From a virus (lineage: Duplodnaviria; Caudoviricetes): a stretch of 64,000 nt of DNA. Positions 45,595 through 52,525 of the stretch are shown here, piece after piece. The position numbers were made by a program, and so were the translations under genes. The notes under the pieces are model-generated. The model was not told the origin of the DNA and did not search any database. It saw only the letters and a list, made by a program, of their open reading frames with translations. Every line of letters begins with the position of its first letter. Position 1 is the first letter of the stretch. The stretch spans positions 1 to 64,000 of IMG/VR virus record IMGVR_UViG_2939201121_000002; one strand, written 5' to 3'.

Positions 45595-46830
45595 CTATAC
45601 CTCGTCATATTTTAATAATGAATCTTCGATATAACTAAGAATTTCTTGATCGTCTTTATGCTTGAGTACATCAGACTTCAAGATCTCACACATATCTTCG
45701 GTAACATAATTGAATTTCTTTTCCGATAAATGATGCGTTCTAATTAACTCGGCATCAAAGTAGATTGATAACTCGTCAGTCAATTCATTAAAGATTAATT
45801 GAACCTCCTCTCCAATGAATTTTGTAGGTACTGAATATTTACCTTTTCTAAAATTAACCATCGACTCTTTAGAAACGATTCGAATGCATTCATCTTCGAC
45901 ATAGGTGTCTAATAACTGCATATTAAACGGGTTCAATAGATGTTTTTCTTCAGAATTGAATAAATCAATGGGATAGCAGTCAGTTGCTTGGGACATTTCG
46001 TTATGGTTCATTTCATGACAAAAGTGATTGACAAGACTGATAAGTTCAACAGCGTCATAAAATTCATAATCTTAGGGCCTTAAACGCTGTTCCACAAATT
46101 TAGCTAAAGATTCAACAGAGCCCTTGGTTTGTGGTCTATAAGGCCTACACGCGATGGGTTCAAAGTTTGCATCTTTACTAAATTGATGGAAAAGGGTGTT
46201 AAATACAACTTTTCTATATTGCGTTCTAGGACGATCAACGACCGTTTTCATATTATCAAACCATATCTCCTTAGGAACGCCCCCGGTGTACTCAAATGAT
46301 TCTTTCAAACATTGAAATAGTGTATCTTGTTTTCTATCCCAAGTTAATGTGATATACTTCATTTTTGAATAGTGTAGAACGTAAAGAAAGATATTGAATT
46401 GATAACGTTTGCCAAATTTATCATGCATGACCATATCTTCTTTCCAGTCTACTTGAGCAGCTATACCAGGGCGTGTTTCTACCCGTATAGTTGCTTTTTT
46501 AATTTCCTTCTCTTTCTTATTCTTACAATATTCTCTAAGAATCGTATACTTGCCTTCATATCCTTTTTTAGAAATATATTTAAAAATCGCCATAGCCGTA
46601 CAACCCAACTCTAATTTTTCGTCTATGAGCGTTTTATAAGGTTCTAATTTTGATACTCTCTTTGTCGTTTTCCTTGTTTTTAATTTTTTCAACTCATTTT
46701 CTTTCCCAGCCTCGTAATATTTTTTGACTGTCCTTGGATCGCAATGATACTGTCTACCTAGCTCAGCGTAATTTGGTTTTATGCCTTTCATAATGTAAAA
46801 TGACACTCCTTCGTATATATCATGTCTCAA
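45595..46830 (-). pseudogene. istA: IstA transposase with in-frame nonsense codon at 46072-46074
   Basis: QVDW, FDNMK, KGSVE motifs; the frame continues DYEFYD after TAA. Confidence 0.85.
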
Positions 46831-46952
46831 TCAAACAACCTCCATTCAAAGATTGAGTTAAGACATGATTATATATTTTAGAAAATAAAAAATGTAGGAA
46901 AAACAGCATTTTCATTCCGCCATTTTCCTACATTTTATAACCGCCATTTACA

Positions 46953-47205
46953 ATTGGCGCTCAGATAAATTTTTCTTATTTTTTATCACAAGCCAATCAT
47001 TGTAATACTCCTTAAATGTTTTATCATCAATTGCATTACCATCTTCTAAATCACGTATTAATTGTTGCGCTGCATTGACTGCTTCAGCTTTCGTTTTGAA
47101 TCCTGATTTTCGTTTTTTTCCTGACCTAAAAGAGGGGTGTTTGACGTCATATTGCCAAGACGATGTCGTTTTATTTTTACGTTTTGTTACTGTAAATGAT
47201 GCCAT
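46953..47205 (-). pseudogene. int: Integrase 5' fragment, near-identical to prophage 1 int
   Basis: MASFTVTKRKNKT...NLSERQ, truncated at the IS21 end. Confidence 0.92.
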
Positions 47206-47300
47206 TTTGTAGTTCCTCCTAAAAAAAGTAAAAAAATAAACATACTAAGATTAGCTGTGAAGAAATTTATGACGATAGATTTCTTCACAGCTATTTTTTA

Positions 47301-49168
47301 GTGCGCCCGGCATGGGTAACACCTTGACGGTGAAAGTCCGTTACAGGCTTGGTAGTAGGAACTGTTAGCGAAAGACAAGGGTGTCCATTGTGAAGTGGAA
47401 TCTGAAGGAAGTCGGACGCAAACACTCGCACTGACGAACAGAAACATCATACTAAGGCTATGTGGAATGGATGAATCTGCTAAACAAGATGAAGTCCTAT
47501 ACTACCCGAGTTCTATATAGTAAATGATGCGGTGACATGAGTGGAAAGGGGTTACACCTTACCCGGGGAGGTCTCATCAGCGGTATTTCTACCGTAGTAA
47601 CAACGAATGATGAGAAGTCAGCAGAAGTCATAGTAGGGAAAATGTACCGAAGGACTGAACAATATTCAATACAAAGTAAAGATTGGAGGTTATAGATTTA
47701 CGACGTACAGAATACGGTCTTAACCGGCAACTTATGGAAGGATAAGTAGTGGAACGAAAAAGAATACATAAGTGTGTACAGTAAATCTTAGGTGAAATGA
47801 AAGAAATGTATCGTAAGTCTTCATCTCTGATGGAGCTTGTTGTAAGACCTGACAACATAGAAAAAGCTATCAAGAAGGTAAAGAAAAACAAAGGTGCTCC
47901 TGGAATTGACGGCATGAAAGTCAGTGAACTCCATGCCCACTTTGCGCAATACTTTTCGCAGATAAAAAAGAAACTGCTTGATGGTACTTATCAACCTCAA
48001 GCAGTTCGAAAAGTTCAAATTCCCAAACCAAACGGGAAAATGCGTGTGCTTGGTATTCCTGTCGCTAGAGACAGAGTGATACAACAAGCGATTAGACAAG
48101 TGATTGAACCCGGCATCGACCGAACATTTTCAAATCATAGCCATGGTTTCAGACCTCATCGTAGCACAGGAACAGCACTTAAGCAATGTGCTGCCTATTA
48201 CGAAGAAGGCTATAAAATAGCTGTGGATTGTGATTTGAAACAGTGCTTTGACATGTTGAATCATGATAAGCTCATGTATTTGTTCGAACGCCACGTTCAA
48301 GATAAGTCAATTTCTAAATTTATCCGTAGAAGTTTACAAGTGGGTGCTATTGACCTATCTGGCGAAGTCGCAGAAAGAAAGATAGGTGCGCCACAAGGGG
48401 GCGTTATCTCTCCCTTACTATGTAATATCTATCTACATGAACTGGATAAAGAACTCGAAAAGCGTGGACACCGTTTTGTACGATATGCCGATGATTTTGT
48501 TATCTTTGTACGCACAAAACGTGCAGGCGAACGCGTAATGACGAGTGTAACGAAATTTATTGAAAAGCAACTGAAGTTGGTTGTCAATGAAGAGAAAAGT
48601 AGAGTCGGAGCAGTTACACGTTTAAAGTTTTTGAGTTGTCTAATAACCAAGGTCAATGGGGTTTATCGTTTCAGACCGACTACGGAAGCAAAAAGAAATT
48701 TAATACGCGCCTTAAGGAAAATAACGAAACGAAATAGACCCGGTACCTTTAAAGAGATTATCACTGAAATCAACCAAGTAACACGAGGTTGGATAAATTA
48801 CTTTGGCAGAGGTTTTATCAAAGGATTTATTGAAACTACGCAATCTTGGCTAAACCGCCGACTTAGACAACTCATTCTTAAACGGTGGAAAAGAGTAAGA
48901 ACTAAATATAAGATGTTACGCCAATATGGTCTTGACCATAGAAGTGCAATGAAAATCGCACAGTCTCGCAAAAAGTACTGGCGATTATCGAATACGCATG
49001 AGGTTCATCGTGCACTTACAACAAAACAACTCTACAAGTGGGGACTGATACCATTAGCCCAGCTTGCAGAGTTGGCTTACGCAAGGTATTGAACCGCCGA
49101 GTACGGAACCGTATGCTCGGTGGTGTGAGAGGACGAATAGTCAGTTAATGGCTATTCTCCTACTCGAT
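47301..49168 (+). mobile_element. Group IIC intron
   Basis: 5' GTGCG directly after a 15-bp hairpin plus T-run; DV GAACCGCCG...CGGTGGTGTG; DVI ending CCTACTCGAT. Confidence 0.92.
47797..49092 (+). CDS. ltrA: Group II intron reverse transcriptase/maturase (no endonuclease domain)
   Basis: APGIDG, RVLGIP, PQGG, YADD, RGWINYF. Confidence 0.95.
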   Translation: MKEMYRKSSSLMELVVRPDNIEKAIKKVKKNKGAPGIDGMKVSELHAHFAQYFSQIKKKLLDGTYQPQAVRKVQIPKPNGKMRVLGIPVARDRVIQQAIRQVIEPGIDRTFSNHSHGFRPHRSTGTALKQCAAYYEEGYKIAVDCDLKQCFDMLNHDKLMYLFERHVQDKSISKFIRRSLQVGAIDLSGEVAERKIGAPQGGVISPLLCNIYLHELDKELEKRGHRFVRYADDFVIFVRTKRAGERVMTSVTKFIEKQLKLVVNEEKSRVGAVTRLKFLSCLITKVNGVYRFRPTTEAKRNLIRALRKITKRNRPGTFKEIITEINQVTRGWINYFGRGFIKGFIETTQSWLNRRLRQLILKRWKRVRTKYKMLRQYGLDHRSAMKIAQSRKKYWRLSNTHEVHRALTTKQLYKWGLIPLAQLAELAYARY

Positions 49169-49312
49169 TAGTTGTAGAGAGAAGTAGATCGCGCAGTCCC
49201 TTGGATCTTTGAATCCGTAATGTAAACTGATCAGCTTTACTCTCCTTTTGAAATTCGATTGAAGTATGTTGGGTTTTAGAAACCGTGTATAGGAAAATGA
49301 AATGAAAAAGGC
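49169..49312 (+). ncRNA. Predicted IS110 bridge RNA target and donor loops (5' stem-loop at 47252-47293)
   Basis: AGTATGTT 49263 and TAGGAAA 49290 match the two sides of the circle junction TAGG-AA-ACATACT. Confidence 0.65.
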
Positions 49313-49352
49313 TAAGTAAAGTTAAAATCTTCTCAATTCAATAGAGAAAGGT

Positions 49353-50561
49353 ATGATTTTTATTAACTGTTTAGGTATTGATATCAGTAAGTCAGAAAGT
49401 GTGGTCGCACATTATAAGGATGAAGTTTTCGTTAAAGAATTGGTCATTCAAAATAATCAAAATGGCTATCGTTATCTTAAAAATTATATCAAGCATCTTG
49501 ATTCCCTGTTTATCCTCTTTGAATCAACAGGTGTTTATTCAAGAGGTATGAAACACTTTTGTGAAATTCACAAAATAAATTACTTAGAAATGAACCCCCT
49601 AGAAGCCAAGTTTAAAACAAATTCGTTAAGATCATGGAAAACAGATAAGTCAGACGCACATAAACTCGCACTTCTTGCCTTTAGAATGAAAGATTCAAAG
49701 GTACAACGTCATCCTGAAGAGATCTACTTTGAACTGAGAGAACGTGCGCGCTTTCACTTAGAAATGGAGATCAACCAAAATTGTCTCAAAGTTGAGTTAG
49801 TCGAAACACTACATCAAACATTTCCAGGGTTAGAAAAGTTATTTACTAACAGATATTCAAAAATCGCATTAAATATAGCTAAAGCATTTCCTCATCCTGA
49901 TTATGTAAGTATTTTGACTCATGATGAATTGGTGGAAAAAGTACTTCATTCAACTGATAAAGGCATTTCAATTAAAAAAGCGCACAAGTATGCCAAAAAA
50001 TTAATTGAAATAAAGAATAATAGTTTTCCGAATGTGCGCAAGTCTTCTTTCCTCCTACAAAAAGTCCAATACTTATGCGACAAACTGCTTATTGGGATAG
50101 AAGAAATGAAAGCATTTAATCAGGAAATGATTGATTTAGCTAAAAATACAACTGAGTTTGAAAATATTATTTCAATTCCTGGCATCGGAGAACTCACAGC
50201 TACATTGCTTATTGGGGAACTTGGAGATATTAGAGAATTCAAAACAAATAAACAACTGAATGCATTTGTAGGCATTGATATTAAACGTTACCAATCAGGA
50301 ACTTCAAAGAGTCGAGATACGATTAATAAAAGAGGAAATAAAAAAGCAAGGCGTTTATTGTATTTAATCACTATGAACATTCTTAGGGGAAGAAATCATT
50401 ATCAAAGCCATATTGTGGATTATTATTATAAATTAAGAGAGCAGCCTCATGGGAAACCCCACAAGACTGCCGTAATAGCGAGTATCAATCGCTTATTAAA
50501 GACCATTCACTACTTGATAGTCAATGATAAATTATATGATTATCAGAAAGCACCACACTAA
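49353..50561 (+). CDS. IS110 DEDD recombinase
   Basis: GIDISK, FESTG, KTDKSDA, SIPGIG, QSG. Confidence 0.95.
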   Translation: MIFINCLGIDISKSESVVAHYKDEVFVKELVIQNNQNGYRYLKNYIKHLDSLFILFESTGVYSRGMKHFCEIHKINYLEMNPLEAKFKTNSLRSWKTDKSDAHKLALLAFRMKDSKVQRHPEEIYFELRERARFHLEMEINQNCLKVELVETLHQTFPGLEKLFTNRYSKIALNIAKAFPHPDYVSILTHDELVEKVLHSTDKGISIKKAHKYAKKLIEIKNNSFPNVRKSSFLLQKVQYLCDKLLIGIEEMKAFNQEMIDLAKNTTEFENIISIPGIGELTATLLIGELGDIREFKTNKQLNAFVGIDIKRYQSGTSKSRDTINKRGNKKARRLLYLITMNILRGRNHYQSHIVDYYYKLREQPHGKPHKTAVIASINRLLKTIHYLIVNDKLYDYQKAPH

Positions 50562-50676
50562 CGAAACCACATAATCATATACATCATAACACCTTATTCA
50601 AAAAAGTAAAAATTGGACGGTCTAGTTCAGTAATGTCAATTTCACTTATTGAACCCTTGACAAATCGTAGGAATAA

Positions 50677-52506
50677 GGGGCTGGGACGTAATTCCTGCCC
50701 TCTTCGCTAAAAAAGCTCTGATTAGATGTAAAAAAACATTTAATCAGAGCTTTTTTAGATATTATTTAAAAAAATAAAGCACTTCCTGTATAATTATTAA
50801 TAACGACAAAAATAATAGACAGGGGTGCTTTATATGTATAAAAATTATAACATGTTTCAACTTACACTTCCAATAGAAACTGAGATGTCTTTTCCAGAAA
50901 ATGATATTGTATTTATTATTAACAAACTTGTAGAATCTATCCCCCAAGAAGCGTTTAATCCATATTATAGCCAAAGAGGTCCTTCATCATACCATCCAAA
51001 AATGATGTTAAAAATCATACTTTATAGTTATGCCCATTCTGTTTTTTCAGGACGAAGAATCGAGCATCTGTTAAAAGATAGTTGCCGAATGATGTGGCTT
51101 GCGCAAGGTCAAACGCCAACTTATAGAACCATCAATCGCTTTAGAGTGAACCCCCATATGATGGAATTTCTACATATTTTATTTGTCGGTTTAAGAGCAC
51201 AGTTATTAGAAGATAAACTCATAACAGAGGATGTCATTTATATTGATGGCACAAAAATAGAAGCAAATGCGAATAAGTACACATTCCAGTGGCTGGCTAA
51301 TACGAAGCGTTTTAGTCAGTCTGTCATTGAAAAATCAACGGCTTTATATGAGCAACTCGTTTCTGAAGAGATTATTCCTGAAATCAAACGTGAATCTGGG
51401 CATGAATTAACAAGTGAAGAACTGAATCAAATAGAGACGCATTTAGGTCATAAAAATGATGCGCTCACGTCTGAAATTGAAACGACTCAAGATGTAGAGA
51501 CAAGAAAAACCCTTAGAAAAGAAAGAAGTAAGGTGAGACAAAGTAAGAAAGCCATCCAAGATTTTAAAGACCGTAAAATCAAATATGACAAGCAAATGGA
51601 AATTTATGGTGACAGAAAAAGTTATTCAAAGACCGACCACGATGCGACCTTCATGAGAATGAAAGATGATCATATGAGAAACGGCCAATTGAAACCGGGT
51701 TATAACCTACAAATCGCAACCCATAATCAATTCGTTTTAGCTTTTGGTGTTTACAGTTATCCAGGTGATACAAGAACGCTCGAACCATTTTTAAAATCCA
51801 TCCACAATTTATATGGTGACATTCCAGAGTATATTGTGGCAGATGCGGGTTACGGAAGTGAATACAACTATACCATGATACTCGATGAATTTGAGAAAAC
51901 ACCTTTAATCACTTATAGTATGTATCTCAAAGAGAAGCAGCGCAAATATAAAAACAATCCATTGATTACTGCTAACTGGGAATACCGTGAGATAGATGAT
52001 TACTATATATGTCCTAACAAAAAGGAATTACATTTCCAAAGTTACAGAAAGAAAAGAGATGGATACGGTATTCAAAGAGATTTTAAATTATATGCATGTG
52101 AAGAGTGTGTGGGCTGTCCATTACGAAGTCAATGTATGAAGCAAAGTACGAACCCCAACACAAATAAACGCTTATTTAGAAATTTAACTTGGGACTATTT
52201 TAAAGCCTTCACAAATCAACAGCTTTCAGATCCAAAGACGAAACACATTTATCAAAAGAGAAAGATAGATGTTGAATCAACTTTTGGAAATCTGAAGGCT
52301 AATTTGGGTTTCCAAAGATTATCGGTTCGCACAAAATCAAAGGTTGAGTGTGAACTTGGCATCGCACTCATGGCAGTAAATATACGAAAACTAGCTAAAA
52401 TAAGTGCTCGTTTTCGTTCGTTAATAAGAAAAAAGCCGTCAAATTCTAAAAAAATGAATTTTGACGTCTTTTTCTTAAAGGAGCTGAAGGTCTATGTCCC
52501 AGCCCC
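50677..52506 (+). mobile_element. IS1182-family element
   Basis: Terminal IRs GGGGCTGGGAC / GTCCCAGCCCC. Confidence 0.88.
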
Positions 52507-52525
52507 TAAAATATTAAGATTTTAA
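50834..52525 (+). CDS. IS1182 transposase (reads through the right IR)
   Basis: YHPKMMLK, IDGTK, KTDHDA, ADAGY, VESTFG. Confidence 0.92.
   Translation: MYKNYNMFQLTLPIETEMSFPENDIVFIINKLVESIPQEAFNPYYSQRGPSSYHPKMMLKIILYSYAHSVFSGRRIEHLLKDSCRMMWLAQGQTPTYRTINRFRVNPHMMEFLHILFVGLRAQLLEDKLITEDVIYIDGTKIEANANKYTFQWLANTKRFSQSVIEKSTALYEQLVSEEIIPEIKRESGHELTSEELNQIETHLGHKNDALTSEIETTQDVETRKTLRKERSKVRQSKKAIQDFKDRKIKYDKQMEIYGDRKSYSKTDHDATFMRMKDDHMRNGQLKPGYNLQIATHNQFVLAFGVYSYPGDTRTLEPFLKSIHNLYGDIPEYIVADAGYGSEYNYTMILDEFEKTPLITYSMYLKEKQRKYKNNPLITANWEYREIDDYYICPNKKELHFQSYRKKRDGYGIQRDFKLYACEECVGCPLRSQCMKQSTNPNTNKRLFRNLTWDYFKAFTNQQLSDPKTKHIYQKRKIDVESTFGNLKANLGFQRLSVRTKSKVECELGIALMAVNIRKLAKISARFRSLIRKKPSNSKKMNFDVFFLKELKVYVPAPKILRF

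Follow-up and report, generated by a model that had tools for sequence, protein, structure and literature searches.

The stretch analysed here, in the following called the window, comprises 64,000 nucleotides (positions 1 to 64,000 of the IMG/VR virus record IMGVR_UViG_2939201121_000002) and carries an insertion sequence (IS) of the IS110 family in which the gene for the bridge RNA, the guide RNA of the recombinase, is interrupted by a group II intron. The genome of the window is a single Staphylococcus contig of 2.9 Mb that harbors 11 full copies of the IS part to the right of the intron. Ten of these copies read AA/ACATACT...GCTATTTTTTA/TAGTTGTAG (slashes mark the border of the IS and the insertion site, respectively), lack the intron, and are contiguous over the positions 47300 and 49169, which leaves the window copy as the only one with the intron. 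In the ten intron-free copies, an identical 61-nt left end (ACATACTAAG...GCTATTTTTTA) is joined directly to TAGTTGTAGAG, and the right end CGTAGGAA is found in 11 of 11 copies. As AA precedes and CGTAGGAA ends every copy, the IS is 1,566 bp long with the core dinucleotide AA, and the intron occupies exactly the positions 47301-49168; the window copy together with the intron extends from 47238 to 50673. We refer to the parts of the left end before and after the intron as exon 1 and exon 2 (Table 1). The AA before ACATACT also recurs in every other copy tabulated from the genus. An earlier sequence-only reading of the window had placed the core dinucleotides at 47238-39 and 50672-73 and had suggested a search for intron-minus copies. 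Direct reading of the sequence bears out these ends, and the search returned ten such copies in the genome, with the same ends as the window copy.

The recombinase gene of the element encodes a protein with a DEDD/RuvC-like N-terminal domain (PF01548, E-value 7e-17) and a C-terminal Tnp domain (PF02371, E-value 2e-21), and the protein scores 177.6 bits against NF033542, "IS110 family RNA-guided transposase" (cut-off 140). The Tnp domain aligns to the IS621 transposase (8wt6, E-value 1.9e-9) and no other domain aligns. By sequence, the recombinase is a distant relative of the IS621 transposase.

Table 1. Position and basis of the features at the locus of the interrupted IS110-family element
Feature	Position	Strand	Basis
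Left AA core dinucleotide (target/donor crossover site)	47238-47239	+	AA before ACATACT in 11/11 copies of the genome
IS left end, exon 1 (61 nt)	47240-47300	+	Identical in 10 intron-free copies
Parts of exon 1: -10 TAAGAT; hairpin; T-run; A	47246-51; 47252-47293; 47294-99; 47300		
Group II intron, IIC behaviour (1,868 nt)	47301-49168	+	Rfam; RVT_1 and GIIM; TIGR04416; exact relative to 10 empty copies
Rest of the bridge-RNA region, exon 2 (184 nt)	49169-49352	+	Fold; helix covariation; guide-target covariation; donor matches
Closing stem of the two guide stem-loops (GAGAAG/CTTCTC)	49179-84/49329-34	+	Fold
Target loop (5' guide AGTCCCTT; 3' side)	49187-49232 (49195-202; 49220-27)	+	
Donor loop (AGTATGTT; TAGGAAA)	49233-49323 (49263-70; 49290-96)	+	
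IS110-family recombinase gene (402 aa)	49353-50561	+	PF01548 and PF02371; NF033542
IS right end (-35 TTGACA; AATCGTAGG; right AA core)	50657-50673 (50657-62; 50663-71; 50672-73)	+	
Right half of target: terminal motif (TA)AGGGGCTGGGAC of the neighbouring IS1182-family element	50674-50690	+	Flanks of 11 copies
Sequence taken as IS target: AAGGGGCT			
IS1182-family tnp	50825-52525		NF033551, 381 bits

The bridge RNA and its guide loops

The left end of an intron-free copy folds into a 5' hairpin, followed by a closing stem around two stem-loops with internal loops. The 7 helices of this fold with their 50 pairs are 98.5% paired over 21 different left ends from the genus, and 9 pairs show compensatory changes. 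Slid controls gave at most 2 covarying pairs, and 0 of 500 shuffles reached the covariation score of the bridge RNA, a count that is not a probability, as the sequences are related. The left end of the IS encodes a true bridge RNA. The view of the sequence-only reading that the window holds an IS110-family element with a left-end bridge RNA is thus supported by the recombinase domains, the helix covariation, and the guide covariation and donor matches described below.

In the donor loop, AGTATGTT is antisense to one A of the core and the first 7 nt of the IS (A+ACATACT), and TAGGAAA equals the last 4 nt of the IS (TAGG), the core AA, and one further A. The two sequences sit on opposite sides of the second internal loop; when the 184 nt of exon 2 were shuffled 200,000 times by mononucleotides, both were present in 0.03% of the shuffles, which upholds the earlier claim that the donor loop matches both sides of the TAGG-AA-ACATACT junction. 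The donor guides hardly vary in the family: of 21 sequences, 1 departs from the others, with a G at one position of AGTATGTT, and hence there is no covariation to score. The stretches that the donor loop reads are flanked by a 4-bp subterminal inverted repeat (GATT at 47249-47252 and AATC at 50663-50666), which is similar to the short repeat reported from the ends of the IS110 group.

Species variants differ in the 8 nt at the 5' side of their target loop, and the right-hand insertion flank varies along with these nucleotides: AGACTCTT occurs with AA/AGAGTCT, AGCCTCTT with AA/AGAGGCT, and AGCTCCGT with AA/AGGAGCT. Over 45 copies in 10 guide classes, a mean of 4.93 of 6 variable positions matched between the target guide and the right flank. 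This value was reached by 0 of 10,000 class shuffles when the register was free to shift by -1 to +3; with the register fixed, 123 of 10,000 shuffles reached it. From this comparison, 17 of 61 rows had been dropped (15 without a right end in the stretch fetched, 1 of aberrant length, and 1 duplicate locus). The row of aberrant length (L110) was dropped though its guide and flank match, and two loci were without a left end by the pattern used. Left flanks, inspected by eye and without a statistic, showed no match to the 3'-side target guide beyond A/T richness. The test of target-loop covariation suggested by the sequence-only reading therefore turned out positive for the right flank with the 5'-side guide and negative for the left flank.

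The target guide of the window copy, AGTCCCTT, is complementary to AAGGGACT; the flank at which the IS usually sits, AA/AGGGGCT, pairs with it with one G-U. The window copy itself has the flank AA/TA-AGGGGCT and is thereby 2 nt out of register with its guide. The match of the first loop to its target is hence better than the earlier remark of a merely partial match implied. In the 3' side of the target loop, the core is followed by AC, the same two nucleotides with which the IS begins, and this resembles the handshake guides described for IS621.

Elements of the IS110 group whose bridge RNA lies at the left end, IS621 among them, have been characterized by Durrant et al. (2024, PMC11208160) and Hiraizumi et al. 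(2024, PMC11208158). Measured against these descriptions, the present element shares with them a recombinase with DEDD/RuvC-like and Tnp domains, a left end that is non-coding and forms a 5' stem-loop plus two internal-loop stem-loops, a match of the donor loop to the joined ends on either side, and, for its 5'-side guide and the right flank, covariation of the target loop with the insertion site. Also shared are a core dinucleotide at both ends, a predicted promoter split over the joint of right end and left end, a short subterminal inverted repeat, and a repeated element as the target. In contrast to IS621, the core is AA (TT on the other strand) instead of CT, and the 5'-side guides are antisense to the core plus the right half, whereas those of IS621, known to us by description, are in the sense of the left target or donor half plus the core. 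The short 3'-side guides of the present element are in the sense of the left half plus the core, followed by AC (49187-49232 and 49233-49323; loci L074-L130). Judged from the published description, the guide geometry appears to be mirrored or strand-flipped relative to IS621. Further differences are that the left target half is without clear specification here, and that the 5' stem-loop is followed by a T-run, resembles a terminator, and in one copy is followed by an intron.

The group II intron and its homing site

Three Rfam models matched the intron above their gathering scores (RF02001 with 138 bits at 47384-47556, RF01998 with 48.5 bits at 47593-47655, and RF00029, covering domains V/VI, with 43.4 bits at 49092-49168). 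The open reading frame (ORF) of the intron-encoded protein (IEP; 47797-49092) contains the domains RVT_1 and GIIM and scores 393 bits against TIGR04416; an endonuclease domain was not detected in the IEP by Pfam. UAAA at 47481-84 is a candidate for the exon-binding site EBS1, as suggested by a loop in the Rfam alignment. In the alignment of domain V, 4 consensus positions are missing, and a shorter domain V marks class C. From its behaviour and domain content, the intron is assigned to class C (IIC type).

The genome contains five full-length copies of this intron, one copy with an internal deletion, and many fragments. All six long copies are located 7-9 nt behind an inverted repeat, after a T-run plus A and before a T, and the site in the IS, a stem followed by TTTTTTA/T, has the same form as the other homing sites. 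The fragments, inspected by eye, gave the same picture, with 5' fragments behind an inverted repeat in 6 of 6 cases (5 of them with a T-run) and 3' fragments followed by T in 5 of 5 cases. It follows from this shared form of the sites, with hairpin, T-run and A/T, that the intron entered by ordinary homing into a hairpin carried by the IS, and the proposal of the sequence-only reading that a IIC-like intron had homed behind a hairpin is supported by the ATTTTTTA/T site. All six long copies are co-oriented with replication (origin near 0 and terminus near 1.67 Mb by cumulative GC skew), which is consistent with insertion into the template of the lagging strand. Between the intron in the IS and three other copies of 1,868 nt, there are 6, 6, and 14 differences over the 1,868 positions, and the IS copies of the genome differ from each other at 0-6 of 1,566 positions; in view of these few differences, both the expansion of the IS and the invasion by the intron were recent. 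The combination of A at IS position 266 and T at IS position 378 is unique to the window copy.

Class C introns are known to insert after terminators, where they recognise the stem-loop of the 5' exon together with the intron-binding site IBS1 (Toor 2006, PMC1702495; Waldern 2020, PMC7306698, which cites Robart 2007). The present intron agrees with class C introns such as B.h.I1 in its insertion just 3' of an inverted repeat plus Ts, in short IBS1/IBS3 sequences (UUUA/U here), in an IEP with reverse transcriptase and maturase, and in many copies and fragments at intergenic sites. Unlike the usual class C sites, the "terminator" is here part of a mobile element and at the same time serves a guide-RNA gene as its 5' stem-loop.

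The explanation that we consider probable is a parasite nested in a parasite, in which a IIC intron entered one IS110 copy by ordinary terminator-type homing and does not represent an evolved control device. The intron would have retrohomed into one copy of the multicopy IS110-family element, as the conserved hairpin and the TTTTTTA/T at the start of the bridge-RNA gene would look, to the intron, like its usual intrinsic terminators. The insertion would put 1.9 kb between the junction promoter with the 5' hairpin on the one side and the guide loops with the recombinase gene on the other, and it may be tolerated because exact splicing would recreate the normal RNA. The insertion is exact relative to the ten intron-free copies, so that, judged from the letters, exact splicing would indeed restore the guide sequence as proposed earlier. 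We infer transcription from the junction promoter, splicing in vivo, and an effect on the mobility of this copy.

The predicted junction promoter and the 5' hairpin

When the two ends of the IS are joined, TTGACA (50657-62) and TAAGAT (47246-51) come to lie at a distance of 17 nt, a spacer composed of 9 nt of the right end, the AA core, and 6 nt of the left end. The right-end pattern CTTGAC[A/T]AAT[C/T]GTAGGA[A/G] and both hexamers with their spacing, TTGAC[A/T]-17-TAAGAT, are kept in 13 of 13 full-length variants with a located right end, and the DNA just upstream varies freely. The promoter pair over the joined ends that had been noticed in the sequence-only reading is thus substantiated by the sequence and by all 13 variants. 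A 10-of-12 promoter match is common in the A+T-rich DNA of this region (10 sites with at least 9/12 in 1.9 kb versus 8.7 expected).

Sigma-70 promoters start transcription about 7 nt 3' of the -10 element. Because the -10 element of the junction promoter ends at 47251 and abuts the stem, the start, at about 47257-60, would fall within the 5' arm of the hairpin. The RNA would therefore begin with a shortened hairpin and not, as claimed earlier, with the whole 15-bp stem. The hairpin at 47252-47293 has 19 pairs (5 G-C), a 4-nt loop, the tail TTTTTTATAG, and a terminator-like score (scan on the intron-free copy L002). It fits the pattern of an intrinsic (Rho-independent) terminator, and a terminator role is predicted from this pattern. 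Compensatory changes occur at 4 pairs of the hairpin, and several G-U pairs fit the sense strand; the T-run and the following TAGTT are invariant among the 21 left ends. No promoter of at least 9/12 was predicted between the hairpin and the guide loops. TATAGT, which spans the insertion site, was considered as an internal promoter and rejected, as by eye there is no acceptable -35.

One may argue from these data that the hairpin is a terminator or insulator outside the bridge RNA and that the intron lies upstream of the guide-RNA gene, interrupting nothing functional. The 19 pairs flush with the T6 run and the terminator-like score are in line with this argument, as would be a transcription start within the 5' arm, and the pair 17/50, just upstream of the expected start, shows a compensatory change in one sequence, which hints that the full stem forms in another molecule. 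However, the -35/-10 pair over the joined ends, which is kept in 13 of 13 variants, reads into the hairpin, the region between hairpin and loops has no promoter-like site, and the G-U pairs of the stem fit the sense strand. Furthermore, in published accounts IS110 bridge RNAs begin with a 5' stem-loop, and the roles of terminator and bridge RNA are not mutually exclusive. We therefore regard a hairpin outside the bridge RNA as unlikely.

An alternative partner for the 3' arm of the hairpin is the segment that starts at the insertion site (47287-94 with 47300 plus 49169-75). The pairing frequency of the resulting helix is 97.6%, and at two of its pairs both partners have changed, in 9 cells. 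The T-run would lie in its loop, and the helix would be split by the intron and restored by splicing. The pattern could equally reflect a direct repeat of the 5' arm (TAGCTGT/TAGTTGT) that is kept downstream, and the helix is thus not established. A role of this alternative helix as an antiterminator was rejected on kinetic grounds, as its 3' strand is transcribed after the U-run.

A helix split by the intron and restored by splicing would be welcome to the idea of a splicing gate, according to which the excised circle yields usable bridge RNA only after the intron has spliced, so that the activity of the intron would control the integration of this copy. The exact insertion with ligated exons equal to the normal RNA, the intact ORF and domains of the intron, and the position of the only conserved promoter upstream of the intron, with no other site of at least 9/12 between hairpin and loops, are all compatible with such a gate. 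Nevertheless, both guide loops and the closing stem lie wholly in exon 2, and for IS621 Hiraizumi et al. (2024, PMC11208158) report that removing the 5' stem-loop lowers recombination only slightly and that the target-binding loop (TBL) and the donor-binding loop (DBL) act as separate RNAs. The ten intron-free copies could moreover supply bridge RNA and recombinase in trans, and there is one intact composite of IS and intron, the three other junctions described below being wrecks. A splicing gate is accordingly improbable in our judgment.

Combining terminator and intron, one could also envisage the hairpin as a mobile terminator that depends on the start site, with an intron that is silent in the integrated IS and expressed on excision, and with a composite that travels as a unit. 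Transcripts from outside would fold the complete stem directly against the U-run and terminate there, whereas circle-promoter transcripts would start inside the 5' arm and read through. The production of intron ribonucleoprotein and the maturation of spliced bridge RNA would then be coupled to the mobilisation of the IS, and the different guide of a relic in another species (G025, see below) would be a trace of such a lineage. We give little credence to this joint scenario.

Distribution, related systems, and neighbours

The left end was matched in 47 of 86 Staphylococcus species representatives, the genome of the window included, and among the matches listed (best 9 candidates per genome), about 80 rows by hand count run uninterrupted through the insertion site. 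Junctions of IS and intron were found in three other species among the 86 genomes, all of them decayed. In G039, at a different locus, another IS cuts the intron after ~180 nt; in G044, a degenerate left end is joined to ~30 nt of the intron; and in G025, the last 204 nt of the intron are joined to 49 nt of exon 2, which carries another target guide, and there is a duplication of 10 nt. Several species variants share exactly the same first 61 nt of the IS, and this segment therefore gives no signal for one composite versus separate invasions.

A second intact composite was not found in the 86 genus genomes, genome_contigs, metagenome_contigs, or plasmids, and no genome searched holds more than one copy of the composite. 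Exact-pattern scans of metagenome_contigs gave 0 stretches for the 5' junction and 0 for the 3' junction; in genome_contigs, the 5' junction pattern was present in 1 stretch, which is the G039 contig (G039:C169). Among the plasmids, 17 records matched, none covering at least 80% of the query, and the 15 plasmid matches listed do not go beyond the intron part (query 52-1936), with ~79-83% identity for the longer ones. Assembled contigs of public DNA runs (two runs of one sample with most of the stretch, and runs of other organisms with about a quarter) show a skip from 47300 to 49169 that corresponds to the intron-free copies. A circle back-joint was not present in these assembled contigs, which would not show rare forms. 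Given that the intron is present in 1 of 11 copies, that these searches yielded no second intact composite, and that the three other junctions are decayed, the earlier suggestion that the intron hitch-hikes on the IS is not supported.

The same data raise the question of whether the intron-bearing copy is simply dead, with a promoter uncoupled from guide and recombinase and with decay to be expected as in the relics. That three of three other junctions are truncated or degenerate and that the composite never exceeds one copy in any genome searched speaks for such a fate. On the other hand, the window copy is intact, with 0-6 differences of its IS part to the sister copies and an open recombinase frame, and its ends could still be mobilised in trans. 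A dead copy is a possibility to be taken seriously, though not the one we favor, and it would be a special case of the nested-parasite explanation without a separate mechanism.

Some observations weigh against the explanation by ordinary homing of a nested parasite. A correctly oriented homing site is present in about 5-6 of the 11 IS copies and 1 is occupied; this low occupancy could also reflect selection against occupied copies. The conserved helix spans the splice site, so the intron interrupts a conserved RNA or DNA feature and not a mere spacer. Finally, the guide of the G025 relic, AACCCCGT, is unlike those of all intron-free copies tabulated, and the composite lineage may thus have been active long enough to change its guide.

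Both elements are of known kinds, and IIC introns behind terminators as well as introns within mobile elements are textbook knowledge. No publication that describes a group II intron within the bridge-RNA gene of an IS110 element was found; supplements, which were outside the search, could hold cases. A related case is that of the IStrons, transposons that carry a group I intron together with a TnpB guide RNA and for which a conflict between intron and guide RNA has been described (10.1101/2023.11.20.567912). IStrons likewise combine a self-splicing intron and a transposon guide RNA on one transcript, and splicing and guide production can interfere. The intron of IStrons is, however, an evolved part of the element itself, of group I, and combined with the TnpB nuclease, whereas here a foreign group II retroelement resides in 1 of 11 IS110 copies. 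Another IS110-family element, of a different subgroup, also prefers the end of another mobile element; the guide RNA of the present element lies at the left end.

Much current work is devoted to bridge-RNA recombinases as tools for genome writing, and to our knowledge little is known about how their guide RNAs are naturally made and controlled. The present IS offers a well-populated natural family with clear target-guide covariation and an apparently mirrored guide geometry. Its conserved 5' stem-loop suggests that such a structure in a bridge RNA can resemble a terminator and may thereby attract IIC introns repeatedly, and the window copy is a natural construct in which transcription of a guide RNA must pass across a group II intron, which probably has to be removed by splicing. 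Should the intron be a mere passenger, the locus would be no more than a neat case of one mobile element nested in another.

At its right side, the IS abuts the end of an IS1182-family element (Table 1). The motif GGG[GA]CTGGGAC has 25 occurrences in the genome, 9 of which are abutted by a right end of the IS; one of these 9, near G000:C1:1898178, seems to be a lone right-end remnant. By our own reading of its occurrences, the motif is probably a terminal repeat of IS1182-type and other repeat families. In some complete genomes, such as L098 (G075:C1:111528-111600), the left end matches over its first 70-80 nt and then continues into GGGACATAA-like sequence; these short matches could be deletion products of left end and target motif. 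Many other short left-end matches are contig ends. On the left side of the IS, a short ORF with an Arm-DNA-binding domain (46948-47205) and an ORF with an rve integrase core (46072-46830) lie on the minus strand, and the IS is thus embedded in a patch of other mobile-element remains.

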